Shown in pieces: positions 8,168 through 47,419 of a DNA stretch of 64,000 nt. This DNA comes from a virus (taxonomy: Duplodnaviria > Heunggongvirae > Uroviricota > Caudoviricetes): positions 76 through 64,075 of IMG/VR virus record IMGVR_UViG_3300010365_001539, one strand, 5' to 3'. The notes beneath the pieces were generated by a model. That model was not told the DNA's origin and ran no database searches. It saw only the letters and a list, made by a program, of their open reading frames with translations. The position numbers and the translations under genes were made by a program. The first letter of the stretch is position 1; each line of letters starts with the position of its first letter.

Positions 8168-8545
8168 ATGAAACACTTAAAAAAGTTTAATGAAATGAAT
8201 AATATAGATATGAATATATCTGGTCTTAAATGTGATAATTGTGATTACTCAGATCCATCAGTTAAATTAGAAGACTATGAAAAAAGTATTGGTAAACCTT
8301 GTCCTAAATGTGGTGAAAGTTTATTAACTCAAGAAGATTATGATGGTGTAATGCAAATTGTTCAAGCAGTTGAAATGTTAAATGGATTCTCAGAAGCAGA
8401 TATAGATGCAATTGCAGGTAATCTTTCAGAAGATGAAATTGATGGTGCATTAGATATGATGAACTTATTAAAAATGACCAAAACTGGTGAAACAGAAGAT
8501 GGTAGAGAAAAATGGGATATGGGTGGATTACCTAACAGAATATAA
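8168..8545 (+). CDS. leader-family protein (N-terminal MKHLKKFNE) with a zinc-ribbon-like Cys cluster
   Basis: N-terminal MKHLKKFNEMNN. Cys cluster CDNCDYSD...CPKCGES. Acidic C-terminus. Confidence 0.5.
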   Translation: MKHLKKFNEMNNIDMNISGLKCDNCDYSDPSVKLEDYEKSIGKPCPKCGESLLTQEDYDGVMQIVQAVEMLNGFSEADIDAIAGNLSEDEIDGALDMMNLLKMTKTGETEDGREKWDMGGLPNRI

Positions 8546-8547
8546 TT

Positions 8548-8994
8548 ATGATTAAAAATTATAACCAATTTATAAATGAAGAATTTAGTAATGATACCAT
8601 TATTGAAGTCCTAATAATTTTAGAGGATATACAAAAACAACTTAAAAAAGGTATTTGTCCAATGAAAATTATAAGTGAGAATCCAATTATATTTGAGTAT
8701 CATTCTGGTGCAATATATACAGATCAAATAGGTATAAACTTTAAACCACATCACCATTATGAAAAGGTATCTATAGACAATGAAAATAATCAAATAGTTA
8801 TTAAATGGTTAGATGTTATTGATACTATGTGGCCACACTATACACCAAATGAATTAAGATTTAATAGTGTAGATGAAATTGAAAAATTCCTTAAAAATAG
8901 ATATTTAGATAATAAATGGGAATTAAGAAAACTTAAAAAAGGTAGATATTTAACAGATGATGGTGTAGATGATATACCTTGGAATCTTAGATAA
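8548..8994 (+). CDS. hypothetical protein
   Basis: 148-aa ORF with an ATAATTATG junction. Confidence 0.5.
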   Translation: MIKNYNQFINEEFSNDTIIEVLIILEDIQKQLKKGICPMKIISENPIIFEYHSGAIYTDQIGINFKPHHHYEKVSIDNENNQIVIKWLDVIDTMWPHYTPNELRFNSVDEIEKFLKNRYLDNKWELRKLKKGRYLTDDGVDDIPWNLR

Positions 8995-9000
8995 ATAAAA

Positions 9001-9025
9001 AAGACTCAAATTGAGTCTTTTTCTA
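9001..9025. terminator. bidirectional rho-independent terminator
   Basis: Hairpin AAGACTCAA-ATT-TGAGTCTT is flanked by an A-run upstream and a T-run downstream. It lies between convergent genes 8548..8994 (+) and 9027..9506 (-). Confidence 0.7.
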
Positions 9026-9026
9026 T

Positions 9027-9506
9027 TTAGAAGTTTATTTTCAAACCTAAGTTTTTATTATATGGATCCTTAGAAGCAAATACTGAAATGTTTTTAGTTA
9101 AGTTCAAATTGGCTTGGAATATATTACCAAATGCATTTACATTTGTTATGAATGAACCTTTAGTAGTATATAAAAATTTATCAAAGAAATTCTTATCTAT
9201 ATTATTAACATCACAGAAATTTTCAAAATCCTCTTTTCTAACATCAGCACCTGCAGATGTTAAGAAGTCATAAACTAAATGTGCTTTTTCATCAACTATA
9301 GTATTTAAGTCTTTACTTTGTAATTCAGTTTTATCAAATACAATATTCTTTGCTTTTTTGTGTAGAACTTCTTCTACTTTTTCAGGAGTTACATTCTGTG
9401 AATTTATATAACCCATAGTTACCAATAAAGGTACTAAGAACATATTTTTAAGACCTTCATTTATATGATCTTCATTTACCTCATTAAATTTTTTTAAATA
9501 TTTCAT
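9027..9506 (-). CDS. leader-family protein (N-terminal MKYLKKFNE)
   Basis: 159-aa - strand ORF starting MKYLKKFNEVNE. Flanked by a terminator on one side and a promoter-like region on the other. Confidence 0.55.
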   Translation of the reverse strand: MKYLKKFNEVNEDHINEGLKNMFLVPLLVTMGYINSQNVTPEKVEEVLHKKAKNIVFDKTELQSKDLNTIVDEKAHLVYDFLTSAGADVRKEDFENFCDVNNIDKNFFDKFLYTTKGSFITNVNAFGNIFQANLNLTKNISVFASKDPYNKNLGLKINF

Positions 9507-9535
9507 AACTTATATATTAATTTAAAAAATTATAT

Positions 9536-9543
9536 TATCTTTG
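9536..9543 (+). promoter_or_regulatory. Bacteroidetes-type -7 element TATCTTTG
   Basis: TAnnTTTG match 5 nt upstream of the ATG at 9548. Very AT-rich upstream region. Confidence 0.35.
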
Positions 9544-9547
9544 TAAA

Positions 9548-9886
9548 ATGAAAAAAACACTATTACTATTACTACTTACATTTTATTCCTTTTCTCAAGA
9601 AGGAAAAAAAGAACCATTTGATTCAATCACAAATTGTGAATCAAGATACCTTTATTTTCCCAATTTACAAACATATTATGATTCAAAAACAGAAAAGTAT
9701 CTATATAAAGTTAATGGTGAAATTATAGAATCTGATGAAAGACCAAAAATTGGTTATTCAGTATATAATGGTTATCATGTACAAATAACTGACTATGATG
9801 GTGATGATATTTTTAATTGTTTAGAAATTCACAAGAAATTATATCCATATGTATCATCAAAATCAAGAAAAAGAAATGAGATATGA
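9548..9886 (+). CDS. secreted protein (signal peptide)
   Basis: N-terminal MKKTLLLLLLTFYSFSQE signal-peptide-like sequence. Confidence 0.5.
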   Translation: MKKTLLLLLLTFYSFSQEGKKEPFDSITNCESRYLYFPNLQTYYDSKTEKYLYKVNGEIIESDERPKIGYSVYNGYHVQITDYDGDDIFNCLEIHKKLYPYVSSKSRKRNEI

Positions 9887-10437
9887 TAAATATATTATCT
9901 ATTATAGTACCAATGGTAATAGGTGGGTTAATACTTATGTACATTATATTAGAGACTGTATCTATTTTTGAATTTGGTAGACAAAATGGTAAAGAAATTA
10001 CAAAATTCAAAAACAATATGAACTTTAAACAAAGTTTTATTAATTTTTATAAAGTAATTAAACTTATTAATATTAAAAATTTTGATGATTCATTTGAAAT
10101 TCATACAAGAATGAATGGTGGTTATATACTAAATTCTATTTCATATTATATGAAAATAATTGATGTAGATAATGTACTTTTAATAACTAAGAGTTCATAT
10201 CAGATTGGTTATACTTTATCAACATATAAAAAAATTGATAATGATTTTAAAGAGTATAAAATTAATATTACTGATTCACCAGCACTTCTTTATTGGTATA
10301 GATACTATAAATTAGATAAATTGATAAAGAAAAGCAAATGTAGATTGGTAGAACCTGATGATATAAACAAAATAATAAATGGACACTATACTGTTTATAA
10401 CAGAGATACAAAACTAAAAGAATTACTAAATGACTGA
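9883..10437 (+). CDS. hypothetical protein with an N-terminal TM helix
   Basis: 184-aa ORF with an ATGA overlap to the upstream gene. Confidence 0.45.
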   Translation: MINILSIIVPMVIGGLILMYIILETVSIFEFGRQNGKEITKFKNNMNFKQSFINFYKVIKLINIKNFDDSFEIHTRMNGGYILNSISYYMKIIDVDNVLLITKSSYQIGYTLSTYKKIDNDFKEYKINITDSPALLYWYRYYKLDKLIKKSKCRLVEPDDINKIINGHYTVYNRDTKLKELLND

Positions 10438-10897
10438 TAAAGAAAAAAATTTATATAGAGCAGCAGGTCTTACTTTTAATGTAGGTAAGAATGAGATTGT
10501 TGTTATTCCACCTAAAAAATATTTTGATATTGAAAATCCTGGTAAAAGTATTGACACTTCAAAAATGATTGAAGAGTTGGAATACCTTATTGGTTTTGTT
10601 GAAAAAATTTCTATTAAATTAAGTAATAAAGAATTTACAAGTAGAGCACCTGAGAAAGTTGTTGAAATGGAATATAAAAAGATAAATGATTCTATGAGTA
10701 AAATAAGAATAATTACAGAAACTTTAGACTTTATTTACAATATTTCATCTGACTTAGATAAGAAAAAATTACTTAAAAAGTCTGTTATTGATAATACAAA
10801 GTTTAATGACAAACAAAAAGAATTTCTTATAAATGAGATTGAAGAAGCTGATGAATACTTTATTAATATACTTGAAGAAAAGATAATAAATGATTAG
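10430..10897 (+). CDS. hypothetical protein with a segment resembling the ValRS C-terminal coiled-coil (…LSNKEFTSRAPEKVVEMEYKKI…)
   Basis: Motif L-S-N-x-x-F-x-x-(K/R)-A-P-E-x-V-V-E-x-E resembles the tRNA-synthetase (Val/Leu) C-terminal coiled-coil domain. Confidence 0.4.
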   Translation: MTDKEKNLYRAAGLTFNVGKNEIVVIPPKKYFDIENPGKSIDTSKMIEELEYLIGFVEKISIKLSNKEFTSRAPEKVVEMEYKKINDSMSKIRIITETLDFIYNISSDLDKKKLLKKSVIDNTKFNDKQKEFLINEIEEADEYFINILEEKIIND

Positions 10898-11339
10898 TAG
10901 AAATTATACATACACAGTTGATGAAATAATAGAATTTATTGAAATATATTTTGAAGTAAATCACTATAAGAGAAGAGGTGATGGTCTTATCACCTCTGAA
11001 TTTTCAATAACCAATACTGATATTGATATGGTATTACAATACTTTGATAAAGATATGAAAGTATTTGATATTTCAATGTACACATTTGCAGGTGGTTGGG
11101 AGACTAAAAGAAAATGTATGAAAATACAAATGGATGTTTGTGAAAAAGAAAACAAATATGATTATTGGTTACAAACTCCTGATATACCTTACATTGATAT
11201 GTATTCATTGAAAAAAGTAGGTGCTTTACCAGAGATTGCTAAGGAAGAAATCTTTGGTAAGATAAATGAATTCTTTAAACTAACTTGTAAAAAAGAACAA
11301 TTAAGAGATATAAAATTATTAGAATTGGGTATTAAGTAG
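10890..11339 (+). CDS. hypothetical protein
   Basis: 149-aa ORF. Confidence 0.45.
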   Translation: MISRNYTYTVDEIIEFIEIYFEVNHYKRRGDGLITSEFSITNTDIDMVLQYFDKDMKVFDISMYTFAGGWETKRKCMKIQMDVCEKENKYDYWLQTPDIPYIDMYSLKKVGALPEIAKEEIFGKINEFFKLTCKKEQLRDIKLLELGIK

Positions 11340-13866
11340 TGAATGTTACAGCACCACCAGGTCTTCTCCAGTCAGGTTCAGAGTAAACTCCAACAGTTGA
11401 CCAATAATTCAATCCTCTTGTATCATTAGATGTTGTTGTTTTAAAATCATCAATATTTATCCATCCTGCTGTTCCATCACAATCAACATAAAACTCTAAT
11501 ACACTATCGTGATTTATCACAGGTGTTGTATAAGTTAATATTTGCCAAGTACCATTTGCTGCATTTGTGGCACTAACTGCCATTGTCTCTGCTAAATTTC
11601 CCGCTAAAGGGTTAAATGCATACATCAATCTTGGTTGATTTCCATTATATGCAGCACCGTCACCAACAACTGATTTTCTAATAGCAATAGTAACATTACA
11701 GGTTTGCCCTGAACTAACAGCTATTCGAAAAGGATTTGAAAATGTTTTATTTGTTGTAACCTCAGGTTTTATTCTTATAGTTGGAAGACCATTATAAGTG
11801 ATTACATTATCATTCTGAATAAAACCATTACTTTGAAATTGTCGATATTCATTATTTACTCCACCATGTTTTAATGATGTTACTCCATTAAATCCATTCA
11901 CAGAAGTAAATGCAGCCGTAGAAGCATAAGATGCAGTTATTCCAAAAAATAAACAATTTGTTAATGTAGTTCCAACTTGACCACCTCTTATACATGAAGT
12001 TGAAAAAAGGCTATCTACACCATTAGGATTTTTCCCAAATGTACAATCTGAAAAATGTGTGTAATCATTAAACATTGCTGAATATCCAATAGCAGTTAGA
12101 AGTCCTGTTTTACCTGCCCAAAAGAAGCAATTATTAAACCAAAGTTTTCTAAAAGTACCACCAGAAGAAGAAGCAATTACATTTAAATTTGTTACATTTC
12201 CGTAAAAATAGCAATTTTCAAATTTTTCAAATACTGATCTATCTATGCTTGTAGTTGAGTTACCTGTTATCAATCTAATAGCAATTGAATTATTAAAAAA
12301 TATGTAATTACTCACCGAATATCCAGTAGAATTGGAAGTAAGATAAAGCGCACCATTTCCACCATTTGCATAAAATTTATTACCAGAAGTTCCTGTTAAG
12401 GGATTACTTTGTGAGCCAGCATTACTACAGGATGATATAACATTATTACTACCAATGCTTCCTCCAAAATGTGTAGCAAAACCGGCAAAACCAATTATCA
12501 AATTATTATCATTAATTGTTCCGGAAATTTCAGAGTAACTAAAGAAAATGTTATTAGATAAAGTGTATGTAGTAGTAAATAAACTAGCAAATAATGTACT
12601 TGTACCTGGATTGTTAATTTGCCAAAACGTGCATTGTTGTACATTAAACGTTCCAGTATAAGTTGATGTTCCACTGGCATGAGAATTTGCACCTAATTCA
12701 AAAAATTCTACATCAAAAAATGTAGTTATCCCTTGTAATCCTTGACGGAAACGAGTTTTGAATGTTGCATTTACACTACGTATTTTTATGTTTCGAGTAA
12801 GATTTACTAAGTCCGCTTGCATAAAGATTGCAGCATTACCATCATGAGCAAATGTTGTTGCAGGAATAGTCAATGTAGTTCCAGATGCATTTGAGCTTAA
12901 AACTCTTCGATCAATTTGAGTAGTTGTTCTTGTTGTGCTTGGAATAATGATAGTATCGTTTTGTCTCCATCCAGTAGCAACATTACTTGTTATGGTTGTT
13001 GCACCAACAGCAATATCTGCTGCTAAAAGAGCTCTGTGTAATATAGTAGTTGCATGCTTTGTTTCTAATGTACCATAATTTAAAATTCCAAATTGTAAAG
13101 CTGAGGCACAATTTATTTCTAGAACTGCAGTAGATGTTGCAGGTATTGGATTAGCAAAAGTCCCAATTGTAAATGTAGCTCCTCTACCAATTATTAAATC
13201 ACCATTTAATCTCAATCCATAATTTGTTGATGGTGCTATTCCATAATTAAAGGTTCCATTACTACCCACATAACAATTTCCATATTGTGTTGCAAGAGAA
13301 GTACTATTCATAGTAACTGTTACAATAGTATTAACTCCTGCTGCAGTATATTCACCAGAAGTTATCACTGTATCGGTTGCTACAGGTGCTTGTGTAGTTG
13401 TAGTAACAAGAGCTCGACTCCAGTTATTTGTAACAGCACTTCGATAAACAGTTACTGTACTATTTACTGAAGAAAATGCTCTAACTGAATATTGATTTCC
13501 TGCAATTAGTGTAACACTGCTATCAAATTTAAAATATGTCCAACCAATAAAACCTCCATTTAAAGTACCACCAGTATTGGGTAAATCTGAAATATTTACT
13601 ACAACATCCTTTACAACAGCACCTACTGTATTATTCCATAGCCTTACAGTCATAGTTCCAGAAGGAACTGCTATTCTTGATCCTAATTGTAATGCAACAC
13701 CTGCTACAGTTATAGCACCAGGAGTAAGTGCTACAGAAGCATTGGTTTGGGTTGTAGTCAGAGCTTGTTCACTAGTTCTATTATCTAAATAAGAAGTAGC
13801 TTCAACTAGCCCCCAAGTAGAAGCATCTAAGAAATTACCAGATTGTATTGATTGTAGTATTGCCAT
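11332..13866 (-). CDS. large virion fibre/adhesin-like structural protein (T/S/N/G-rich, probable beta-helix)
   Basis: 844-aa - strand ORF. Composition biased to T, S, N, G and A. Many short beta-strand-like repeats (e.g. FFNNSIAIRLITGNST). Adjacent to and co-oriented with the collagen-like fibre gene. Confidence 0.55.
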   Translation of the reverse strand: MAILQSIQSGNFLDASTWGLVEATSYLDNRTSEQALTTTQTNASVALTPGAITVAGVALQLGSRIAVPSGTMTVRLWNNTVGAVVKDVVVNISDLPNTGGTLNGGFIGWTYFKFDSSVTLIAGNQYSVRAFSSVNSTVTVYRSAVTNNWSRALVTTTTQAPVATDTVITSGEYTAAGVNTIVTVTMNSTSLATQYGNCYVGSNGTFNYGIAPSTNYGLRLNGDLIIGRGATFTIGTFANPIPATSTAVLEINCASALQFGILNYGTLETKHATTILHRALLAADIAVGATTITSNVATGWRQNDTIIIPSTTRTTTQIDRRVLSSNASGTTLTIPATTFAHDGNAAIFMQADLVNLTRNIKIRSVNATFKTRFRQGLQGITTFFDVEFFELGANSHASGTSTYTGTFNVQQCTFWQINNPGTSTLFASLFTTTYTLSNNIFFSYSEISGTINDNNLIIGFAGFATHFGGSIGSNNVISSCSNAGSQSNPLTGTSGNKFYANGGNGALYLTSNSTGYSVSNYIFFNNSIAIRLITGNSTTSIDRSVFEKFENCYFYGNVTNLNVIASSSGGTFRKLWFNNCFFWAGKTGLLTAIGYSAMFNDYTHFSDCTFGKNPNGVDSLFSTSCIRGGQVGTTLTNCLFFGITASYASTAAFTSVNGFNGVTSLKHGGVNNEYRQFQSNGFIQNDNVITYNGLPTIRIKPEVTTNKTFSNPFRIAVSSGQTCNVTIAIRKSVVGDGAAYNGNQPRLMYAFNPLAGNLAETMAVSATNAANGTWQILTYTTPVINHDSVLEFYVDCDGTAGWINIDDFKTTTSNDTRGLNYWSTVGVYSEPDWRRPGGAVTFTT

Positions 13867-13874
13867 TATCCAGA

Positions 13875-16076
13875 TTAATTTTGTGTACCTTGTATTACCA
13901 AAGTTGCTTTTGTTATTGTTGAAACTGAGTCAACATTAAAACGTATTATATCACCAGAATTGATAGTTGTTGTCCAACCTGTTAAAGTTGAACTTTGATT
14001 TTTTATAACTGATGATAATGTTGGTTTAGCAGAACCTGTTATAGTATCTGATTGTGTTGCAGGATAATTAGCATAAGTATCTTTCCAAACATCTATTACA
14101 ATTGAGCCAACCTGGTCTGCAATCAAAGTCCAAGAACTTATAGTCATTGAATAAGGAATAACAATGTCTCCTTGAACACCTGTTGTTATAATCGAACCAG
14201 CACCATCAATAGTAATACCAAAACTTCTTTCTATCTGAGGTGTAGAACCAGTTGCACCAGCAGGACCTGTTGGACCAGTTGGACCAGTTGGACCAATTAA
14301 ACCATCTGCACCTGTAGCACCTTGTGGTCCAGCAGATAATGATGTATCAACTAATTGATTACCATTTACTCTACCAATTACATCTTGAGTTGTTAATTCA
14401 TCTGGTAAATCACCTAAAAAGAACCAACCATCTTGGTCTCTATCAACAACACTTATTTGAGTATTCTTTACAGTTGTATTTGCTTGGTAGAAATAACTTG
14501 AACCACCATCATAGTTATCTGTTCCTCCTTGTGATGCATTATTATCATATAACATATTATAGTTATACGAATTAGTTATAGTACAAGAACCAATAGCAGA
14601 ACCATTATCTAATTTATATTTTGTTAATGTTGATTTTGTTATACTTAATGTAGAAAATTCTGAGTTATTATCTAAATCAAAATAAGATAGCTCACAACTT
14701 TCATAAAAGTCTGTTTTGTTTATAAGTGATGTGTTATTTAGTGTTACATACTTAAACATTAAATCACCATAAGCAACTATATCATTTATTTTAGAACCAT
14801 TATCTAATGTTATATTAGTCATAATAGTTTTACTATTAACACTAATCCTATACATATAAGACTGGTTATTTAATATAACATTATCTTGAGATATACCATC
14901 AAAGTTTATATTGTTGTTATATGAATTTGTAATTCTTTGATTTCCAATTCCCTCAAATCTTTGCTTATCTAAGTTATATGTAAATCCTTTACCCCATTGA
15001 AAAGCTTTTATAGGACAATAATCACCAGTTTCATTTTGTATCTTCTTTAATTCATCATAGTTAAATGAAACCTCGTTTATATTCTTCTCGTTTCTATAAA
15101 CAATTTTATTATTATCTATATCATATTTTATTTTATCATAAGATATATTATAATTTTCATTATCATATAGTATTAATTCCCACTCTTCATTTAACTCATA
15201 GTCACTATTTGCAGAACCTACATTTCCATTTTTGTTTTTCCAAACATAACCACCCCATATAACTCTATCATCTATATTATATGAACCAGTAAATTGCCAT
15301 ATACCAAAATCTCTATATTTAGGTGTATAGAATATACCTGTACCAAATGTATCTAATTTATTATTTTCTAATGCTAATAAGTATATAGTTGAACCCTTAC
15401 CTTCATTACCATAACCATATAATAATCTATCTACATCAACAATTTTATATGTAACACCTCTTATTAATCTTCTATCAGCAATTAGTGTTAATATATTACC
15501 TAAGTTTGTATATATAATGTTTATTTCATCCGGTATTACAACTTCACCACCTAAACTATCAACTAAAGTTAAAGTATTATCACTTGGAGTAAAATAACCA
15601 CTTACAATAGGATTACCAGGTCCCGTAGGTCCTGTAACACCTTGAATACCTTGAATACCTTGAGGTCCAGTTGAACCTGTTGTTCCTCTTGGTCCAGTTG
15701 CTCCAACTGGTCCTTGGATACCCTGAGGTCCTGTTGCACCAGTAACACCTTGACTTCCAGTTGGACCTGTAACACCTTGACTTCCAGTTGAACCTGTAAC
15801 ACCTTGACTTCCAGTTGAACCTGTAACACCTTGACTTCCAGTTGGACCTGTAACACCTTGACTTCCAGTTGGACCTGTAGCACCTTGACTTCCAGTTGGT
15901 CCTGTAGCACCTTGACTTCCAGTTGGTCCTGTAACACCTTGACTACCAGTTGGTCCTGTTGACACACCACCTAAGTCTAATAAATTACCAAATCCATCAT
16001 AATATAAACCACCTACAACTTGAACTAATCTACCATATGTATTTGAGACAGTAAGCCCCGTTAAATTATTACTCAT
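13875..16076 (-). CDS. collagen-like repeat-containing fibre protein
   Basis: About 40 G-X-Y triplets near the N-terminus ([19 protein letters not shown]...). A second G-X-Y run lies near the C-terminus ([28 protein letters not shown]). 733 aa. Confidence 0.75.
15640..15965. repeat. tandem array of ~27-bp repeats (CCTTGACTTCCAGTTGGACCTGTAACA and variants) encoding the collagen-like G-X-Y region
   Basis: Visible periodic near-identical 27-mers between about 15650 and 15960. The antisense ORF 15602..15970 ([12 protein letters not shown] repeats) is an artefact of this array. Confidence 0.8.
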
Positions 16077-16126: not shown

Positions 16127-16471
16127 ATGCAGGAAAAAAAATATCTTAAATGGGAAGAGGTTGATAGTATTTGGGATGATACAAACTACCTATGGGAAGA
16201 TGTTGCCATATTTATTGAAATAAATGACTTAGTTAATAGAGGTGGTGGAGATTATGCTGCTTATGTAAAAGGAAATCCATGGGAACAACTTAGAAAAGAT
16301 TTAGGTGAAGAAAAAACCAAAAGAGTTATAAAACTTTATTGTAAACACAAAGGTGTTGAGTATGAAGAATCTAAAGGAATTAATGAAAGTATTAAAGTAA
16401 CTGCTTCTGAATTTGAGATATTTGTTAAAAACTCAATAAGAGAAAGTATAAGTATAAAAGTTAATTTTTAA
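16127..16471 (+). CDS. hypothetical protein
   Basis: 114-aa ORF. Confidence 0.45.
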   Translation: MQEKKYLKWEEVDSIWDDTNYLWEDVAIFIEINDLVNRGGGDYAAYVKGNPWEQLRKDLGEEKTKRVIKLYCKHKGVEYEESKGINESIKVTASEFEIFVKNSIRESISIKVNF

Positions 16472-17137: not shown

Positions 17138-17168
17138 AAAATCCACTGAAAAGTGGATTTTTATTTTA
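17138..17168. terminator. bidirectional rho-independent terminator
   Basis: Hairpin AAATCCACT-GAAA-AGTGGATTT followed by TTTATTTT. Lies between convergent 16507..17136 (+) and 17166..17999 (-). Confidence 0.7.
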
Positions 17169-17999
17169 GTATTGATCACCTCTACCAGGATTAGGTGGTT
17201 TTGGAAAGTCCATATAATCATCTGACTTTTTAGGGAAAGCATCATTTTCTTTTTGAAAAACTATTCTTTTTCTTGAAAAAGTATCTCCCAAATACCCAAT
17301 GTATATGTTATTATATTCTGAAAATTGATTCTGCATATCTTTTATTAACTCATCTAACCAATCTTGTTCTTTATCATTTATTCTATCCATCCAACCCATT
17401 GCTAGACATATAGACATATTATAATTACCATCTAATTCATCTAATACAATTTTTAAAGGAAAGAACCTACCTATAAACTCATCACTTATATCAATGAATA
17501 ATTGTTCTGCAACAGTTTTATACATTTTATCAAAGTCCATTACTTCTTTAGACTCTTTTATATCAGTATCAAGATTAATCTTGATATAGACATATCTGAT
17601 ATTTTTATCAGTTATATCACTTTCAATTAAATCATCCAATTCTATACCAGAAGGTTCTTCTGAGGCAGAACCTGGAAATTTAGTAACTGCAGTAGCAACC
17701 ACTACATCAAATCTTTCTTTTAATATCTCATAAAAAGGAATCACATCATCCTTTACTTCACTCCAATTATAATCTTTATTATTATGAATCCCTGCCCCAT
17801 AATATGCAGGTTTTAATATATTAATAATGGCCACACTATTACTATCACCTCTACTTACTTTTGTTACAAACCCCTCATCCTTTAAAAATGCTAAGTACTC
17901 ATCACAAAAATCACTCACTTTTCTAAATCCTGTAATTACACTCATCATATGAGATTTAAGTGGGGTAGTAAAACTTTCATATAATTTTAAATATTTCAT
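17166..17999 (-). CDS. leader-family protein (MKYLKLYESF), subfamily with an FCDEYLAFLKDEGF / WSEVKDDVIPF N-domain
   Basis: 277-aa - strand ORF. Shares an N-terminal ~120-aa domain with 34263..34691, 39724..40170 and 46976..47419. Confidence 0.55.
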   Translation of the reverse strand: MKYLKLYESFTTPLKSHMMSVITGFRKVSDFCDEYLAFLKDEGFVTKVSRGDSNSVAIINILKPAYYGAGIHNNKDYNWSEVKDDVIPFYEILKERFDVVVATAVTKFPGSASEEPSGIELDDLIESDITDKNIRYVYIKINLDTDIKESKEVMDFDKMYKTVAEQLFIDISDEFIGRFFPLKIVLDELDGNYNMSICLAMGWMDRINDKEQDWLDELIKDMQNQFSEYNNIYIGYLGDTFSRKRIVFQKENDAFPKKSDDYMDFPKPPNPGRGDQY

Positions 18000-33983: not shown

Positions 33984-34270
33984 AATTTTTTTCAATAGAT
34001 ACTGCAATAGATAATGAATATAGATTTTATAATATTCAAGGAGGTAATGTATTTTTTATTTTAAAAGAAAAGTTTGGAAAATATCATACTTCACAATTAT
34101 TTGAATATGAACCAATAGTTGAAGAACTAAAAGAATGGTCTATAAAAGTTATTCAAAATAATCCTAAAATAGGATTAGAAGATTTATCATTTAATTATGA
34201 TAAAGTAATCAAGCCAATGTTTATTTTACATCAGAGAGATAGTAAATTAACTCAACTTGGTATTACCTAA
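33980..34270 (+). CDS. hypothetical protein (ends RDSKLTQLGIT)
   Basis: 96-aa ORF. Confidence 0.45.
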   Translation: MKFFSIDTAIDNEYRFYNIQGGNVFFILKEKFGKYHTSQLFEYEPIVEELKEWSIKVIQNNPKIGLEDLSFNYDKVIKPMFILHQRDSKLTQLGIT

Positions 34271-34691
34271 TATCAGAAATGCCTATCTTTCTATTTATCT
34301 GTAAACTAACACCAGTACAAGAAGCATACTCAGGAACTTTACCATCTATTACATCTTTTACAGAAAAAACTTTATTAAATTGATTAGGTGCAATTTGTGG
34401 TTCATAACTATCAAAACCAACATTACTATATGCAATTACATATCTTTCAGATAATATTTGTAAGAATGGAATAAAATCATCTTCTATTTCATTCCAGTAA
34501 AATCTTCTACCTCTACCTGGAAAATTTATATCATTATAATCTCTATCAAGTATAGTTATATGAGTATTAACATCATTACTATTAACATAACATTCAAACT
34601 TTCCATCTGTTAGATAAGCCAAATACTCTTTACAAAACTCTTCCAATTCATCACCAAGTTTTGATTCATTAAACTTTTTTAAATATTTCAT
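34263..34691 (-). CDS. leader-family protein (MKYLKKFNE), FC-E-LAYL-D-GF / W-EI-DDFIPF subfamily
   Basis: 142-aa - strand ORF. Contains the EEFCKEYLAYLTDGKF and WNEIEDDFIPFLQILSERY motifs. Confidence 0.55.
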   Translation of the reverse strand: MKYLKKFNESKLGDELEEFCKEYLAYLTDGKFECYVNSNDVNTHITILDRDYNDINFPGRGRRFYWNEIEDDFIPFLQILSERYVIAYSNVGFDSYEPQIAPNQFNKVFSVKDVIDGKVPEYASCTGVSLQINRKIGISDIR

Positions 34692-38114: not shown

Positions 38115-38384
38115 ATGTTAAGAAGTGTAATTAAATTAAAAGGTGAAGACCTATTTGTGTACTCAGGTACTTTACAAAACTATATACTATTTCCAACTCC
38201 AAATATATTTGAAGATGATGAAGTTGGTTATGTTCTACAAGACTTAGAAAACTATGTTACTGAAAGTACTAAACCTGGTTTCATTGAAGTAATTAGGTCA
38301 ACAATATCAGCTTCTAAGAAAAGAGAATATGCCAAAATTGAAGATCTTGAAATTAAACAAGTAACAATAAGCATTGAAGACTAA
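38115..38384 (+). CDS. hypothetical protein
   Basis: 89-aa ORF. Confidence 0.45.
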   Translation: MLRSVIKLKGEDLFVYSGTLQNYILFPTPNIFEDDEVGYVLQDLENYVTESTKPGFIEVIRSTISASKKREYAKIEDLEIKQVTISIED

Positions 38385-38716
38385 TCAATAGTTTCCTGAC
38401 ATCTTTTTAAGATTTCTTCCCTGTAAGGACTATCTTTTGCAATATCACTAAATGAACCATTTATCTTTATGATAATAATTGGATCTCTGTGAGGATATTC
38501 TAAATGTTGAACTAATATACTTTTACTATTTACTTTAAATCTAAATGTTGTTTCAGTAGTATCACCACTTGCTCTAAATGTTGGTTTAACTTCTACTTCT
38601 TTTTCCGCATCTTGAATTACATCATCATCAAATGCTTTAAGTATTTCATCACCTTCTGGCTCAGTCCATAAAGATTCTTTATCAAAGTAATCTTCAAATA
38701 TTTTTAAGTATTTCAT
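38381..38716 (-). CDS. leader-family protein (MKYLKIFEDY)
   Basis: 111-aa - strand ORF. Confidence 0.5.
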   Translation of the reverse strand: MKYLKIFEDYFDKESLWTEPEGDEILKAFDDDVIQDAEKEVEVKPTFRASGDTTETTFRFKVNSKSILVQHLEYPHRDPIIIIKINGSFSDIAKDSPYREEILKRCQETID

Positions 38717-38763: not shown

Positions 38764-39027
38764 ATGAAATACTTAAAGAAATTTAATGAGTCTGAATCAA
38801 CAGAAATGAGTCGTGAGATAAAAAGACTTCAAGATGAAGCACTTACTAAAAGTTCAAATGTTGCTCTATCGGGTACTAAATGGATTGATGTTGTTAAAAA
38901 TTATTTAGATAAAGAAGGAATTGATGTAAAAGAAACAACAAGTACTAAACTATTAAGTATTATAAGAGAATTAGGTGTACCTGATAATGTAGTTTATACA
39001 ACTCTTGAAGAAGTAAGAAAATTATAA
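38764..39027 (+). CDS. leader-family protein (MKYLKKFNESES)
   Basis: 87-aa + strand ORF. Confidence 0.5.
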   Translation: MKYLKKFNESESTEMSREIKRLQDEALTKSSNVALSGTKWIDVVKNYLDKEGIDVKETTSTKLLSIIRELGVPDNVVYTTLEEVRKL

Positions 39028-39723: not shown

Positions 39724-40170
39724 TTACTTTCTTATTTTATAATCCTGTATATAAAATCTTATACTTACTAAATCTTTTAACAAGGTAGGTGTTAAATTAT
39801 CATTTATTAAATCATCAATCTGAACTTGATGAAATCCAAATGTGTTAAAAATGGCACCATTCATGAATAAATATTTCTCATTACACATCTCTATAAATGG
39901 AATAAAATCATCTTTAATTTCTTCCCAAGTAAATTTTTCTACTTTAATAGTATTATATTCATCAACTTCACCTTTCTTCTTTAGTATAGAAAATTCTGGT
40001 AAATAACCCTTTATGGGATTATATGACTTTCTACCAACTGATACCGAGAACCCATCATCAATTAAATAAGCTAAACTATCATTTGCAAAATTTCTAAGGT
40101 CATCTACTAACTTTATTAAATTAGGATCAGTCATTCCATTAAACTCTTCATTATATTTTAAGTATCTCAT
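39724..40170 (-). CDS. leader-family protein (MRYLKYNEEF), LAYLxDDGF / WEEIKDDFIPF subfamily
   Basis: 148-aa - strand ORF. Confidence 0.55.
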   Translation of the reverse strand: MRYLKYNEEFNGMTDPNLIKLVDDLRNFANDSLAYLIDDGFSVSVGRKSYNPIKGYLPEFSILKKKGEVDEYNTIKVEKFTWEEIKDDFIPFIEMCNEKYLFMNGAIFNTFGFHQVQIDDLINDNLTPTLLKDLVSIRFYIQDYKIRK

Positions 40171-40961
40171 TCTTTAAACCATTCTTTTGTATAATCTTCT
40201 TCTGCACTTTCCTGTTCTAACAATACAACTGGACCACTACACCATATTTGTTTATCATAACTAACATCAAAATTATCATCATAAGTAAGTAATTTAAAGC
40301 CTCTTTTCTCAGGATTAAATAGTTCATCTTTTATGAAGTTAAAACAATCTTCACCATTGTAATCTCCATCACCTAACTCTCTATACATTATATCAAGAAA
40401 CTTACAACCATCACAATTCTCAATTTCAGGTACACCTAATTCTTTTAATCTTGTTTCAATAGTACCACCATCTAATTGTTCCCAATTATCAGGATCTATA
40501 TGACATAATTCTAAAAAATCACTAGTGGCATAAATATATTGTCCAAACTCATAACCATATTTAGAAAAACTTTCCCATATTGTAGCAGATGGACAAACAC
40601 CAATTTTAATATTATCAAAAGGAACCATTTCATATAAAGTATTACCATAACTTGGTAATTCATCAGACAATCCAATTATTCCTTCACTATACTTAGGATA
40701 TTCTTTCCAGCAATCTAAATTATCCATTAATACTACATGTAATTGTATATTCTCAATAGAACCTCTATAAGTCCCTCTTGCATCAGTATAAACAAATGGA
40801 CCCATATCTTTTTGACTTCTAAATAGTGTAGAATGAGCATTACCATCAAGCCAAACTTTACAATTAACATTAATCATTTCTCTTACCTCAGATTTGGTAA
40901 GAGATTTAGAACCTCTACTATTAAGAGTTTCAAATACTTTATACCTATTTAGATGTTTCAT
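40167..40961 (-). CDS. leader-family protein (MKHLNRYKVFE), 264 aa
   Basis: - strand ORF with an ATGA overlap to the downstream gene. Confidence 0.5.
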   Translation of the reverse strand: MKHLNRYKVFETLNSRGSKSLTKSEVREMINVNCKVWLDGNAHSTLFRSQKDMGPFVYTDARGTYRGSIENIQLHVVLMDNLDCWKEYPKYSEGIIGLSDELPSYGNTLYEMVPFDNIKIGVCPSATIWESFSKYGYEFGQYIYATSDFLELCHIDPDNWEQLDGGTIETRLKELGVPEIENCDGCKFLDIMYRELGDGDYNGEDCFNFIKDELFNPEKRGFKLLTYDDNFDVSYDKQIWCSGPVVLLEQESAEEDYTKEWFKE

Positions 40962-41400
40962 CCTCCAATTTAATTTTAATTCTAAATATACTTATTTTTG
41001 GTACATCTTTATGAAATGTATGATTCTTATCTATTCTTCTTTGTATAAAATGACTATATTCCACTTCATTATAATTTATACCATCAATCATATAAGAAAA
41101 TTCAATGGGATATTCTTTTAAGTAATCTGTAACCATTTCCATATACTCATATATATCACTGAAATTATAACTCTTATTATATGATGTACCATCTCTTAGT
41201 TGACTTTTAGTTACTGTAATATCAATCTCATATCTACCAACATTATCTTTCATGTACAACCACTGTAACTTTTCTTTATTATCAGTAATCTCAACATCAA
41301 ATTCAATGTCTGTTAGTTCAACACACATATTTTTAATATCAGATTTTATTTTATCAACTATTGATGTTGTTAATCCTTCAAATGTTTTTAAGTATTTCAT
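40945..41400 (-). CDS. leader-family protein (MKYLKTFEGL)
   Basis: 151-aa - strand ORF. Confidence 0.5.
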   Translation of the reverse strand: MKYLKTFEGLTTSIVDKIKSDIKNMCVELTDIEFDVEITDNKEKLQWLYMKDNVGRYEIDITVTKSQLRDGTSYNKSYNFSDIYEYMEMVTDYLKEYPIEFSYMIDGINYNEVEYSHFIQRRIDKNHTFHKDVPKISIFRIKIKLEDETSK

Positions 41401-42224: not shown

Positions 42225-42466
42225 TATACAAGAAAGGTGAGTTTGTAAAATGTAAAAGTATGAAAATTGAAACACTAAGAGGTTGGATTACTTATCCTGT
42301 TACTGTTGGTAAACTATATGAGATACAAAGAGATAGTTATGCATGTGATATTATAAATGATAGAGGAACTACAGTTACATTTGAATCAATAAAAGCAGAA
42401 GAACTATTTATGAATATGGCAGAAATCAGAGAAGAAAAATTAAATAAAATATTATATGAAGAGTAA
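42221..42466 (+). CDS. small protein of the C-terminal motif family
   Basis: Contains VTVGKLYEI...NDRG. Ends IREEKLNKILYEE. Confidence 0.5.
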   Translation: MIYKKGEFVKCKSMKIETLRGWITYPVTVGKLYEIQRDSYACDIINDRGTTVTFESIKAEELFMNMAEIREEKLNKILYEE

Positions 42467-42842: not shown

Positions 42843-42914
42843 GGCCCCATCGTCTATCGGTTAGGACGCCAGGTTTTCATCCTGGAAAGTCGGGTTCGAC
42901 TCCCGGTGGGGCTA
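42843..42914 (+). tRNA. tRNA-Glu (anticodon TTC)
   Basis: Cloverleaf: acceptor GGCCCCA/TGGGGCT, D-arm GTC-TATCGGTTAG-GAC, anticodon stem CCAGG/CCTGG with loop TTTTCAT, T-arm TCGGG-TTCGACT-CCCGG, discriminator A. TATATTTG lies about 75 nt upstream. Confidence 0.65.
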
Positions 42915-43024
42915 CTCCGTTTCTCACAACAGAAGAGTAAAACCACTTAATGATTAGTTGGTGAGGTAACAGCTCACAAAGGTTACTAAGTGCTGAGATA
43001 GGGGTTTCCACCTATTGTTACTCA

Positions 43025-43058
43025 AAAGAGTGTTAGATTTTTCTAACACTCTTTTTTT
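43025..43058 (+). terminator. rho-independent terminator
   Basis: AAAGAGTGTTAGA-TTTTT-CTAACACTCTTTTTTTAT. Confidence 0.7.
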
Positions 43059-43085
43059 ATATATAGATAAAATATAATTTCTATA

Positions 43086-43679
43086 ATGAAACACTTAAAC
43101 AAGTTTAAAACCTTTGAAGAAAAATATATCTTAGATGATATTCTATCTGTTAATGAAGGAGTAGGTTCTATAATTGATAAAGTTAAAGACTATGCAAGAA
43201 AAGGTTTATTAACTGCAACTTTAATAACTACACTATTGGCTTCTCCAAAAATATCTGCCCAAGATAAAGAAACAATAAAAGAAATAACTAAAACTGAAAC
43301 TGCAGCACCAACTTATGCAGAGAAGAGAGCTGCTGCACTTGTTAAGAGAGCTAATAATAGAAAACTAATGAGTGACCAATATATAAAATCTGCAATAATT
43401 GCAGGATATGGTGAAGCAATGACTGATGAAGATTTTGCAATTGCATTGGAAAAAGATGATAAGACTATTGAAGATGTTGATAAAGATATTTGTTATAGAG
43501 AAATTGGTGGTACTAAATTTAAAGTTAATCTTAAAAGATATAGAAAGTTTAGAGATAAACAAGGTAAACAAGAAGATGTACCACAAGAAGGTTTACAAGA
43601 TCCAAGTTTCACATCAACATCTTGTGGTATTTCAAAAGCACATGCCAAAGAAGATAAGAAAGAGTGGAGTAAAAAATAA
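43086..43679 (+). CDS. leader-family protein (MKHLNKFKTFEE) with an internal hydrophobic segment
   Basis: 197-aa ORF with LLTATLITTLLASPKISAQ after the leader. Confidence 0.5.
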   Translation: MKHLNKFKTFEEKYILDDILSVNEGVGSIIDKVKDYARKGLLTATLITTLLASPKISAQDKETIKEITKTETAAPTYAEKRAAALVKRANNRKLMSDQYIKSAIIAGYGEAMTDEDFAIALEKDDKTIEDVDKDICYREIGGTKFKVNLKRYRKFRDKQGKQEDVPQEGLQDPSFTSTSCGISKAHAKEDKKEWSKK

Positions 43680-45090: not shown

Positions 45091-45509
45091 AAGTCATATT
45101 TACAGACATTGATGGTGTGTTAAATCCTCACTGGAAAACCAAGTGGAGTAAGTCTGCTATATCAATATACAATCAAATCTGTCAGGAATATGATTTAAAA
45201 CCTGTAATTAGTTCTACTTGGAGAATTAACCATACAAAAGAACAATTACAAAAGATATTTGATGAACAAGGTATTGAAGTGGAAATCTATGATTATACAC
45301 CACATCTTGACCAAAAAGACAGAGGATTAGAGATAAAAGAGTGGTTAAACAACAATAAAGTTGATAATTATGTTGTAATTGATGATATTGTACACAATAT
45401 TACACCTCATGTTGATAATGTAATTAAAGTTAGAAATTGGGTGGGTTTAACCACAGAAGAATATATTGAAATGAAAAAAATATTAGATAATGGCAATGAT
45501 GACAAATAG
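45087..45509 (+). CDS. HAD-superfamily phosphatase-like protein
   Basis: N-terminal motif I FTDIDGVLN (DxDG[TV]). A later hhhDD acidic motif (VVIDDIV). Confidence 0.55.
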   Translation: MKVIFTDIDGVLNPHWKTKWSKSAISIYNQICQEYDLKPVISSTWRINHTKEQLQKIFDEQGIEVEIYDYTPHLDQKDRGLEIKEWLNNNKVDNYVVIDDIVHNITPHVDNVIKVRNWVGLTTEEYIEMKKILDNGNDDK

Positions 45510-45783
45510 CTATAACCAAAGTTATAGAGGAGCTGGTAGAAGTAAAAGTACAACAACTACAAGTGTACAACCTGAAATGGAAATAGTACTTAATAAACAA
45601 GAAGTTATTTATACAGATCAAGATAATAGACATTTACTTGTTACTAGAATACAAACAAATAATAGAGCTTATTGGATGTATAATAATGAGATATTGGAAA
45701 CTGATGATGGTTTTGAAGAAATGTATAGAGTAGTAAATAGAGATTCTAAAATTGATACTATACTAAGTAATGAATTGGGATAA
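45490..45783 (+). CDS. hypothetical protein
   Basis: 97-aa ORF. C-terminal RDSKIDTILSNELG motif variant. Confidence 0.4.
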   Translation: MAMMTNSYNQSYRGAGRSKSTTTTSVQPEMEIVLNKQEVIYTDQDNRHLLVTRIQTNNRAYWMYNNEILETDDGFEEMYRVVNRDSKIDTILSNELG

Positions 45784-46102
45784 AGAGTTTTACTATGTAG
45801 AATGTCATACATCATTCACCTATTCTTATGGTAAAATAACAACTGATGTAAATGAATTTGATCCTATTTTCATTAAAGGATTAGTTTATAAAATGACAAT
45901 AGAACATACAAAAAGTCCTGGAATTAAAGATTATTTAGCAGGATGGGTAAAGTATGATACTTGTAATAACTATGGACCTGGTGGTAGATTTATGGTTGAA
46001 GGGGATAGTAATGGTTGGTTAAAAAATCACTATACAGAATTTTTTTTAACACCAACACAAACAGAAAGAGAACAAAAATTAAAAGAATTGTTATATGAGT
46101 AA
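45770..46102 (+). CDS. hypothetical protein (ends EREQKLKELLYE)
   Basis: 110-aa ORF. Confidence 0.45.
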   Translation: MNWDKEFYYVECHTSFTYSYGKITTDVNEFDPIFIKGLVYKMTIEHTKSPGIKDYLAGWVKYDTCNNYGPGGRFMVEGDSNGWLKNHYTEFFLTPTQTEREQKLKELLYE

Positions 46103-46182
46103 TACAGAATTAATAGTAAAGTCATTCTTTACAATAGTAGTATTAGTAGTAGCAATTTATCATATTAAAAAATATATAAAAA

Positions 46183-46539
46183 ATGAAAGATAAAATAGAA
46201 TTTGCAGAGTTTTTAGATATACAATCTAAATTAGAAATTAAAGTAGGTACAATTCAATCAGTAACTGATGTACCTAAATCAGACAAACTTATTAAATTAG
46301 AAATTGACTTTGGTGAAGACCAATTTAGAACTGTTGTAACAAATATTAAACCTTCATTAGGTGAAGATTATGTTGCTAATTTAACAGGCAAAACATTATT
46401 ATTTGTTACTAACTTAAAACCAGTTAAGATGATGGGTATTGAATCAACCGCAATGATTATGCCAGGATTCTATGATGATTGGGCAGGTAGACTATCACTA
46501 TCAACAATACATTCTAAACCAGGACTTTCAATACTATAA
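46183..46539 (+). CDS. tRNA-binding domain protein (Trbp111/CsaA/EMAP-like OB fold)
   Basis: FLDIQSKLEIKVGTIQSV...SDKLIKLEIDFGED...KTLLFVTNLKPVKMMGIESTAMIM matches the tRNA_bind (Myf) domain pattern found in Trbp111, CsaA and the MetRS C-terminus. Confidence 0.6.
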   Translation: MKDKIEFAEFLDIQSKLEIKVGTIQSVTDVPKSDKLIKLEIDFGEDQFRTVVTNIKPSLGEDYVANLTGKTLLFVTNLKPVKMMGIESTAMIMPGFYDDWAGRLSLSTIHSKPGLSIL

Positions 46540-46666
46540 TGAAAGTCCTTGTTTGGTTTTAAAAACTATTTGTAAAAGAGGAAACATTTGATAGCTTCTT
46601 AAAAGAATTAGTTAAGGAAAGAAGAGAAGCTAAGTATGTTAAGGGTACAAGAGATACTGGACCTCA

Positions 46667-46966
46667 TTAGTTAAATGGATCCCAATCTTTATCATCATCA
46701 AATGCATTATCTCTACTACTAGGTCTATTACTTCCAATTTCATCAAGTTCTGCTACTAAATCAGAATCATCTAATATTCTTTGTAAAAGAACTTTATCCC
46801 ACTTTGTTAACCCTGTTAAGTTATCATCATAGTCATTCAATATCTCTAAAGCATTTACTGTTTCTTCTGGATCATAGTTAGCTTCATTCTCATTATAGAA
46901 GTCTATTAGTCTGTCTTTTAGAGAACCTTCTTCTACATTCTCATTAAATCTTTTTAAGTATTTCAT
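46667..46966 (-). CDS. leader-family protein (MKYLKRFNEN), acidic
   Basis: 99-aa - strand ORF. Confidence 0.5.
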   Translation of the reverse strand: MKYLKRFNENVEEGSLKDRLIDFYNENEANYDPEETVNALEILNDYDDNLTGLTKWDKVLLQRILDDSDLVAELDEIGSNRPSSRDNAFDDDKDWDPFN

Positions 46967-46975
46967 ATCTATTTT

Positions 46976-47419
46976 TTATTTTTCTGAATTAAGAACATCT
47001 ATTTCTATAGTTCTTATTAAGTCTGCTCTAAAAGTTGGATAACCACAATTTTCCATTTTATCATTTAGTAATTCATCTATTGAAAAGTAATAATGATTAC
47101 CATCACTTTTCTTTTCTGGTCTAGCCCAAATTAAAACCTCTTCTGTTTCTCTATTATCAATATCATACTTCTCTCTTAATAATTCAAGAAATGGTGAGAA
47201 ATCATCTTTTATATCATTCCAAATAATATTTTTCCCTCTAAAAGTAAATCTTATCTTTGAATAATCACCATTATCAGAAATGTTAAAATAATAACCTTCA
47301 TCTAATAAATAAGCTAAGTTTTCTTCACAAAAATCTTCTAACTTACTTATAAAAAGTTCATGACTTGATGTATCAATTATTTTTGCTTCATTAAATCTTT
47401 TTAAGTATTTTAATTCCAT
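46976..47419 (-). CDS. leader-family protein (MELKYLKRFNEA), FCEENLAYLLDEGYYF / WNDIKDDFSPF subfamily
   Basis: 147-aa - strand ORF. Confidence 0.55.
   Translation of the reverse strand: MELKYLKRFNEAKIIDTSSHELFISKLEDFCEENLAYLLDEGYYFNISDNGDYSKIRFTFRGKNIIWNDIKDDFSPFLELLREKYDIDNRETEEVLIWARPEKKSDGNHYYFSIDELLNDKMENCGYPTFRADLIRTIEIDVLNSEK

Follow-up and report, generated by a model that had tools for sequence, protein, structure and literature searches.

We analysed a 64,000-nucleotide (nt) stretch of a caudoviricete virus (positions 76 to 64,075 of IMG/VR record IMGVR_UViG_3300010365_001539; hereafter the window), in which genes scattered over both strands begin with a near-identical N-terminal leader of 9–12 residues. 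The window has ~27% G+C and is dense with small open reading frames (ORFs). About one gene in ten of this giant freshwater phage begins with the same tag, which, by analogy with phage T4, most likely sends unrelated proteins into the head for injection. Translation of every ORF confirmed all 12 leader N-termini listed in a preliminary description of the window, with their coordinates and strands and with their size range of 87–277 amino acids (aa). That description spoke of at least 13 members, and a degenerate thirteenth (MQEKKYLKWEE) lies at 16127-16471(+); all 13 N-termini fit the pattern M[KR][YH]L[KN].[FY]..E. The leader takes three forms, exemplified by MKYLKTFE (Glu at residue 8), MKYLKKFNE (Glu at residue 9) and MKHLNRYKVFE (Glu at residues 11-12), so the invariant Glu at position 9 that had been suggested as a check does not hold.

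The confinement of the leader to gene starts far exceeds chance. The core [KR][YH][LI][KN].[FY] occurs 11 times among the first 5 residues of the 136 crude window genes, where 0.03 occurrences are expected, and internally only once in 19,892 residues of window protein. A six-frame scan of the window with M[KR][YH][LI][KN].[FY] gave ten occurrences, every one of them a called gene start. Furthermore, a position matrix scores 15 N-termini of the window above the 99th percentile of controls starting at internal Met residues (1.4 expected).

Table 1. Leader genes, neighbouring features and copies of the AT-rich motif ([AT]TATATA) in the window. Genes are named in the text by their first coordinate; "then" gives the residue that follows the leader.
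Feature	Coordinates	Strand	Length (aa)	N-terminus	Remarks
leader gene	8168..8545	+	125	MKHLKKFNE, then M	acidic; CxxC...CxxC, zinc-ribbon-like; second gene of unit headed by 7837
leader gene	9027..9506	-	159	MKYLKKFNE, then V	singleton; AT-rich motif 4 nt before ATG; terminator-like hairpin after
degenerate/offset leader gene	16127..16471	+	114	MQEKKYLKWEE	AT-rich motif 4 nt before ATG
leader gene	17166..17999	-	277	MKYLKLYE, then S	34263-family paralogue with C-terminal extension; terminator-like hairpin after
leader gene	34263..34691	-	142	MKYLKKFNE, then S	reference member of paralogue family 17166/34263/39724/46976
leader gene	38381..38716	-	111	MKYLKIFE, then D	
leader gene	38764..39027	+	87	MKYLKKFNE, then S	AT-rich motif 21 nt upstream and host-type TAnnTTTG 5 nt upstream
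leader gene	39724..40170	-	148	MRYLKYNEE	34263-family paralogue; third gene of operon 41400->39022
leader gene	40167..40961	-	264	MKHLNRYKVFE, then T	ADP-ribosyltransferase-fold cargo; homologue of Atu_ph07 gp053-056, 058, 059
leader gene	40945..41400	-	151	MKYLKTFE, then G	first gene of operon 41400->39022; AT-rich motif 6 nt before ATG
leader gene	43086..43679	+	197	MKHLNKFKTFE, then E	moderately hydrophobic segment at ~residues 40-55; after tRNA-Glu and strong terminator
leader gene	46667..46966	-	99	MKYLKRFNE, then N	very acidic; last gene of operon 48369->46667
leader gene	46976..47419	-	147	MEL-KYLKRFNE, then A	leader offset by two residues; 34263-family paralogue
loose-leader gene	47410..48369	-		MRLIKEYDEY	first gene of operon holding 46976 and 46667; paralogue of 24532, 27920
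tail-fibre operon	11332..16076	-	733, 844		collagen-like fibre (733 aa) and 844-aa protein; PHROG tail-fibre families, E down to 1e-28
AT-rich motif	9511-9517	-			4 nt before ATG of 9027-9506
AT-rich motif copies	18004-18010, 34696-34704, 38721-38727, 41407-41413, 48375-48381	-			gene-start motif
AT-rich motif copies	7826-7832, 16116-16122, 38736-38742, 43057-43065	+			gene-start motif
AT-rich motif copies	27907-27915, 46172-46178, 56047-56055, 61792-61800				ends 4-7 nt before ATG
AT-rich motif	16082-16090	-			5-7 nt before ATG of tail-fibre operon

By sequence comparison, the leader marks one clade of huge T4-related phages with Bacteroidetes as the predicted hosts. A NadR-like gene of the window (6817-7833) is 61% identical to its counterpart in LR745206.1, a 634,780-bp uncultured phage, and 55% identical to that in LR756502.1; both are among the largest complete phage genomes and belong to the 'Mahaphage' clade, whose predicted host is Bacteroidetes (Al-Shayeb et al. 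2020, PMC7162821). Homologues of 34263 and 40167 lie on contigs of 305-641 kb. Only 17 of the 136 window genes have a homologue in LR745206, so the window is a hypervariable stretch from a rather distant member of the clade. In the whole genome of LR745206.1, 72 of 917 crude genes (7.9%) carry a strict leader, and they are spread over either strand and around the entire chromosome. The core stands at 60 N-termini of this genome (0.41 expected), and 114 N-termini exceed the 99th percentile of the matrix score (9 expected). One further start in this genome, at 351859(+), reads MKYLNHY followed directly by a stop codon and is possibly the remnant of a leader gene.

Exact copies of the leader DNA (ATGAAATAYTTAAARAARTTYAATGAR) are present at 24 IMG/VR loci, many of which have several leader genes in tandem; roughly half of all genes at these loci match LR745206 or the window, which places the loci in the same clade. 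Among 185,579 bacterial and archaeal species genomes (one each), the leader pattern was present only on three contigs of one metagenome-assembled genome. These contigs, assigned to 'Candidatus Muiribacterium halophilum' (JALOAD010000014.1, JALOAD010000028.1 and JALOAD010000098.1), carry leader genes, and 32 of the 33 genes in the stretches examined have megaphage homologues; they are probably phage contigs mis-binned with the bacterium. Being nearly absent from bacterial and archaeal genomes, the leader is specific to viruses and to this clade, and a host-type signal was rejected on the same ground. Neither megablast of window positions 1-20000 nor tblastn of 46976 against cultured and deposited phages gave a match.

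Selection acts on the leader peptide and not on the RNA, since synonymous sites vary much as they do genome-wide, substitutions are conservative, and offset and operon-internal copies persist. Specifically, AAA and AAG encode Lys2 in a ratio of 79/21 (75/25 genome-wide), the two Asn codons are used 85/15 (81/19 genome-wide), and TTA, CTA and TTG all serve for Leu4, with a moderate excess of TAC for Tyr and GAG for Glu. Replacements keep the chemistry of the residue (Y/H, L/I, K/R, F/Y) and not the AU content, and the leader of 46976 is kept despite its offset. In LR745206, 50 of the 72 leader genes have no adjacent promoter motif, many of them being internal to operons. The codon variation, the tolerance of offsets and the operon-internal genes bear out the earlier view of the leader as a peptide signal rather than a 5′ mRNA or translational element.

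Alignments and structure models show that the tagged proteins are laid out as tag, linker and cargo. Within the 34263 family, whose members are only ~30% identical overall, the leader is the most conserved block and indels begin directly after it; the 40167 family behaves likewise. We modelled two leader proteins of different folds with AlphaFold. The 34263 model has a predicted local distance difference test (pLDDT) score of 81.7 overall, with residues 1-9 below 50 and an alpha/beta domain from residue 12, for which Foldseek found no fold match in the PDB; in the other model the domain scores 87.3 and residues 1-11 lie below 50. Once trimmed of their leaders, 96 proteins from the window and a relative fall into 86 BLAST clusters. 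The preliminary description had called the proteins otherwise diverse, which holds for the set at large but not for 17166, 34263, 39724 and 46976, which form one paralogous family; the remaining eight listed proteins have nothing detectable in common beyond the leader. Leader proteins are soluble and acidic (median isoelectric point, pI, ~5), and transmembrane-like segments occur in 2 of 83 tagged proteins vs 104 of 970 other genes. A Sec, Tat or lipoprotein signal peptide was considered and rejected: the leader has 9-12 residues, is amphipathic, ends in Glu and has no h-region of 10-20 residues, and transmembrane-like segments are depleted.

The leader resembles the capsid-targeting sequence of T4 position by position. 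The T4 leaders, read from NC_000866, are MKTYQEFIAE followed by A in the internal proteins IPII and IPIII, MKTFKEFTST... in IPI and MELITELFDE in Alt. The megaphage leader and the T4 internal-protein sequences have M1, K2, a hydrophobic residue at position 4, K or Q at position 5 and F7 in common, in a peptide too short for homology statistics. In addition, a hydrophobic-x-Glu motif ([FYLIVMW]-x-E) ends at residues 8-14 in 81% of 83 strict leaders vs 25% of other N-termini, and the residue after the leader Glu (P1′) is Ser in 28 of 67. All gp21-family proteases that have been studied (T4, phiKZ, 201phi2-1, SPN3US) cut after Glu in an x-X-E motif, and the head proteins of T4 are directed to the core by propeptides of 10-20 residues (PMC5694885). 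The T-even internal proteins have been described as diverse defence proteins that share only their targeting sequence (PMC3012670). With these shared residues, the prevalence of the closing motif and the T4-type head of the clade, the parallel drawn in the preliminary description is supported.

Homology searches indicate that the clade has a T4-type head, with a gp20 portal, a gp21-type protease fused to a scaffold and a gp23 capsid. In LR745206, the portal matches Portal_T4 (E 2.7e-57) and the major capsid protein matches Pfam Gp23 (PF07068, E 1.8e-26); a T4-type large terminase (Terminase_6N) and a sheath are encoded too, as are homologues of gp43, gp44, gp46 and gp47. Directly upstream of the capsid gene, positions 198546-200669 of LR745206.1 encode a 707-aa protein that looks like a protease–scaffold fusion. 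Its N-terminal ~170 residues match T4 gp21 in pairwise BLAST (E 2e-4), and hhalign of a 23-sequence profile against T4 gp21 returned a probability of 70% and an E of 4e-5 over 145 columns, aligning NRNxRxY, GExxHP, VSSRxxG and D.V..P, the His, Ser and Asp motifs among them. A phmmer search of the protease domain against PDB sequences gave no gp21 match; the assignment is based on hhalign, pairwise BLAST, the conserved motifs and gene order. The remaining ~500 residues comprise 9-10 repeats of 14 residues (NIAYSEY[LI]AENLDK, with the core YSEY[LI]AEN) and an acidic tail, and this scaffold part holds ~50 hydrophobic-x-Glu sites.

In 79 of 80 IMG/VR loci, the gene immediately before the capsid gene is the protease–scaffold gene, and two contigs carry both a capsid locus and a leader locus. 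The capsid proteins of 120 clade members share a conserved ...EYAEFHSINE followed by NAYxNASNV; at the matching place, T4 gp23 reads ...FLTE then AEIGGDHGYNATN (in a longer stretch, ...SFLTE then AEIGGDHGYNATNI), and T4 gp23 loses 65 residues (PMC5694885). We infer that the predicted capsid site, I-N-E followed by N, resembles the F-N-E followed by S of the leader.

Leader genes share an upstream motif with structural genes. The AT-rich motif [AT]TATATA, often within TTAATATATA, ends a fixed 4-7 nt before the ATG at eleven gene starts of the window, and no Shine-Dalgarno sequences were seen. If the motif is a −10-like promoter element, the mRNAs made from it would be leaderless or nearly so. 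The same motif precedes the tail-fibre operon, which ties the leader genes to a structural, presumed late expression class. In LR745206, it ends 4-5 nt before the ATG in 71 of the 93 genes that carry it within 12 nt, and 142 of 191 copies of TAATATATA lie ≤60 nt upstream of a co-oriented gene start. It stands 19-45 nt upstream of all six of the portal, protease–scaffold, capsid, sheath, terminase and tube genes; the DNA polymerase, NadR and RNase R-like genes have no copy before them. With transcription units assigned crudely, 13 of 15 leader genes in the window and 66 of 81 in LR745206 belong to motif-headed units, vs 27% and 45% of other genes (p = 1e-5 and 2e-10, respectively). Units headed by the Bacteroidetes-type TAnnTTTG contain 1 of 81 leader genes vs 17% of other genes, which suggests that the host polymerase makes another class of near-leaderless transcripts, one in which leader genes hardly ever occur. 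In the window, TAnnTTTG (the Bacteroidetes-type −7 element, in keeping with the predicted host) ends 4-5 nt before the ATG of 9548, 24532, 29222, 38764 and 41453, and it heads several plus-strand operons of small genes. A T4-type late promoter (the gp55-dependent TATAAATA) would call for an AT-only −10-like element before structural genes together with a phage gp55 sigma factor; the motif lies at such places, and phmmer gave no gp55 homologue in LR745206. A generic sigma-70 scan was uninformative (101 sites vs 112 expected).

The preliminary description had suggested late expression, citing minus-strand singleton genes set between bidirectional terminators and co-oriented with the fibre genes. 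The co-orientation with 11332-16076(-) is correct, and the motif shared with structural genes favours a late class; the terminator detail holds for three genes only, a hairpin with a T-run following 9027(-), 17166(-) and 43086(+), while the remaining minus-strand leader genes either share their 3′ end with that of a convergent gene or sit in operons 41400->39022 and 48369->46667. Upstream of 43086 lie a tRNA-Glu gene (anticodon TTC; 42843-42915(+)) and then a terminator with a 14-bp stem (43024-43055). In the fibre operon, the protein of 13875-16076(-) is collagen-like in its N-terminal part (~residues 36-166), and its C-terminal domain matches phrog_35197. The AT-rich motif also precedes 56060-56986(+), an HNH-type homing endonuclease (PHROG 314, E 3.9e-35). 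Loose leader-like starts (MKINKYEHFLLES, MRLIKEYDEY) occur in a paralogue family of 319-416 aa, 24532-25701(+), 27920-29170(+) and 47410-48369(-) (E down to 6e-28), that has no Pfam or PHROG match. Presumed early operons hold at least ten small plus-strand paralogues of 67-123 aa (18469-18893, 37889-38104, 41988-42466, 57768-58007, 59099-59721, 60919-61431), and 51475-51699 and 51700-51921, both on the plus strand, are a tandem duplicate pair (73-74 aa, 54% identical).

The cargo of 40167-40961 has an ADP-ribosyltransferase fold. In its family, which numbers 2,765 clusters at E <= 0.001, R48, S68 and E70 are invariant and E111 nearly so, and distant members begin with related motifs such as MRLNTYINEGRS. 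The protein has no Pfam match and no significant similarity to T4 Alt; a TL[FY]RSQ string common to the two is not a significant match, and the Atu_ph07 homologues have YRGM. Pfam searches with the leader proteins of the window (ten, then the remaining ones) gave nothing above cut-off, and PHROGs returned families of unknown function only. For instance, 8168 has only sub-threshold zinc-ribbon matches in Pfam, a hit to phrog_4875 (function unknown) and a homologue in LR745206. Among the larger leader proteins of relatives, Pfam recognised one NUDIX domain only, placed directly after the leader; two further proteins of relatives carry HExxH. Anti-CRISPR (Acr) or anti-restriction domains, which the preliminary description had proposed looking for behind the leader, were not matched in the Pfam and PHROG libraries. 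The range of cargo, with an ADP-ribosyltransferase fold here and NUDIX and HExxH in relatives, fits immediate host takeover or counter-defence.

A tblastn search found homologues of 40167 in the cultured T4-related jumbo phages Atu_ph07, RsoM2USA and SCTP-2. RsoM2USA_404 begins MTTFKEYLTE; the proteomics of that phage covers ten gel bands only and is uninformative on its homologues. Within the 30 kb of Atu_ph07 surveyed for leaders (28000-58000), gp053-gp063, eleven genes in tandem, share the start M[KR]W.[QD]L[TNI]E (for example, MRWEQLTE), and six of them are homologous to 40167 (E down to 1.9e-19). Electrospray ionisation tandem mass spectrometry (ESI-MS/MS) of virions detected the products of all eleven, with 3-31 unique peptides each (31 for gp53, at 45.5% coverage, and 11 for gp56; PMC6102473 Table S5), and the phage has homologues of gp20, gp21 and gp23 (PMC6102473 Table S3). 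M[KR]W.QL.E or a looser MRL..LLE also occurs on virion proteins not homologous to the ADP-ribosyltransferase-like family (gp043, gp047, gp057 and gp060-063), so the zip-code principle seems to operate there too. We found no description of the leader in the Atu_ph07 paper, in which the words 'prohead' and 'paralog' are absent (PMC6102473).

In our judgement, MK[YH][LI]K.[FY](..)E is probably a T4-type capsid-targeting propeptide, deployed on a very large scale in a clade of huge T4-related phages. This reading is supported, not proven; every computational test run pointed its way. Under it, tagged and structural genes would be transcribed, presumably late, from the AT-rich phage promoter with which both are associated. 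The exposed, disordered tag would then dock each protein, as in T4, on the scaffolding core assembling on the gp20-type portal. After closure of the gp23-type shell, the scaffold-fused gp21-type protease would cut after the tag Glu, in keeping with the motif found there. The mostly acidic, soluble cargo would be retained in the head and delivered along with the DNA into the next host; the only experimental support for this last step is the virion association of the Atu_ph07 homologues of a single family.

Other explanations of the leader fare less well. At ~27% G+C, codons for Lys, Tyr, Leu, Phe, Asn and Glu are common, and the pattern might be a by-product of AT-rich composition or of ORF calling; but the N-terminal excess over expectation, the near absence of the motif internally or out of frame and the conservation of the leader across orthologues on independent contigs refute this and leave it practically no probability. 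The leader might instead be a translation feature, its first ten codons optimised for mRNAs with almost no 5′ leader and spread by duplication or recombination, with no targeting role. The short spacing between motif and ATG in LR745206, which implies nearly leaderless transcripts, the lack of Shine-Dalgarno sequences and the enrichment of TAC and GAG speak for such a feature. However, most synonymous sites vary as elsewhere in the genome, replacements follow chemistry, offsets are tolerated, and most leader genes of LR745206 are without an adjacent motif; furthermore, fibre gene 16076 and 56060 have the same motif at the same spacing and no leader. We consider this explanation very unlikely.

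Similarly, the leader genes could be one huge, fast-diverging paralogue family whose N-terminus is simply its best-conserved structural element. Four window members are demonstrably paralogous, and a motif ...D.F.EL.D.G[FY] follows the leader in many relatives. Against this, the leader lies outside both predicted folds, unrelated domains follow it (ADP-ribosyltransferase fold, NUDIX, zinc-ribbon-like, HExxH), and the trimmed proteins scatter over nearly as many clusters as there are proteins, which makes such a family highly improbable. A tag with a different address, such as a phage chaperone, a tail or whisker assembly hub, a proteolytic timer or an intracellular compartment, would make the likeness to T4 convergent. 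A disordered tag under peptide selection says nothing on destination, the tagged genes are unusually many, and the Atu_ph07 data establish association with the virion and not location in the head. Yet the prohead machinery of the clade is a full T4-type set with a protease family specific for Glu, the tag ends in a matching motif and matches the T4 sequences at successive positions, and an alternative receptor system was not identified. A different destination is thus unlikely, if less so than the explanations above.

Several points weigh against capsid targeting. Packaging and cleavage of the window proteins are predictions, drawn from sequence and analogy. With 72-114 of 917 genes tagged (8-12%), the repertoire far exceeds every set of targeting sequences known so far, that of T4 comprising a handful. 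Hydrophobic-x-Glu is lacking from 19% of the leaders, and P3 is mostly Phe or Tyr in the leaders vs Leu or Ile in T4. The cargo is acidic, whereas the internal proteins of T4 are basic. The protease domain scores 16.8 bits against Pfam Peptidase_S77, below the cut-off of 27, and the head genes were found in clade relatives and not in the window; the prohead protease that the preliminary description had proposed to look for elsewhere in the genome is likewise represented by the gp21-type domain of relatives. The late status of the AT-rich class is itself deduced; the 7-mer is short for a genome of ~27-29% G+C, and phmmer found no homologue of the gp55 late sigma factor in LR745206 at E < 0.01. 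Finally, the Atu_ph07 virions were purified with polyethylene glycol (PEG), and ribonucleotide reductase and a topoisomerase subunit are among the proteins listed for them; the spectra demonstrate virion association, neither head location nor N-terminal processing (PMC6102473).

More tentatively still, and with rather less confidence than we place in the targeting function itself, the largest known phages may reserve roughly one gene in ten (~80-110 in a 635-kb genome) for an 'ejectome' that is packaged in the capsid, matured by the protease and readable from a zip code of 9-12 residues. We found no paper mentioning the leader motif and none linking 'capsid targeting sequence' with 'huge phage'. 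Nearly all that is known of huge phages comes from metagenomes, and for the majority of their genes no function has been predicted. If capsid targeting is correct, the N-terminal address would give, with no need for cultivation, the location (inside the head) and the timing (delivered with the DNA) of ~10% of their proteins. The address would also point to where injected enzymes of anti-defence and host takeover lie, the ADP-ribosyltransferase-fold protein being an example, and would turn T4 targeting, seen so far on a small set of proteins, into a system of genome scale. On the ejectome reading, hundreds of megaphage ORFan families would be injected effectors of host takeover or counter-defence, and the zip code could serve as a portable tag with which foreign proteins are loaded into such capsids. 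The prediction can be tested in existing virion or metaproteome data, including those for Atu_ph07, by searching for semi-tryptic peptides that start right after the leader Glu.

Among known systems, the giant phages phiKZ, 201phi2-1 and SPN3US are alike in having ejection or inner-body proteins with propeptides and a gp21-family protease that cuts after Glu in x-X-E; SPN3US even has paralogues with identical N-termini, such as gp53 and gp54 (MANFVKSKLARESVE), and these propeptides have been proposed to act like the capsid-targeting sequence (PMC5694885). They differ in being mostly 80-160 residues long, distinct from protein to protein and confined to ~8 proteins, whereas here one consensus of 9-12 residues would mark ~10% of genes. 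Atu_ph07 gp053-063 share a conserved 8-residue leader ending in hydrophobic-x-Glu, include six true homologues of 40167 and belong to a T4-related phage with a gp21 homologue; in contrast to the megaphage leader, theirs has a different, lineage-specific sequence and marks one tandem array in the 30 kb examined, not genes scattered genome-wide.

The targeting sequence of T4 IPI, IPII, IPIII and Alt is likewise a short N-terminal peptide on unrelated proteins, in a phage with a gp20/gp21/gp22/gp23-type head, and has a similar residue pattern and closing Glu (MKTYQEFIAE or MKTFKEF... vs MKYLKKFNE); cargo in both cases includes a protein of ADP-ribosyltransferase fold, Alt in T4 and 40167 here. 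Here, however, the scale is ~13 genes per 64 kb and 72-114 in the 635-kb relative vs a handful in T4, P3 is mostly Phe or Tyr, the cargo is acidic and has no sequence homology to that of T4, the protease appears fused to the scaffold, and packaging and cleavage are only predicted. Outside viruses, the cargo-loading peptides of encapsulins and the encapsulation peptides of bacterial microcompartments, which are not removed by a protease and in encapsulins are usually C-terminal, have no sequence relation to the leader. Nevertheless, the working principle is alike, in that a short terminal peptide with a flexible linker sends unrelated proteins into a protein shell, which in encapsulins has the HK97 fold, as phage capsids do.

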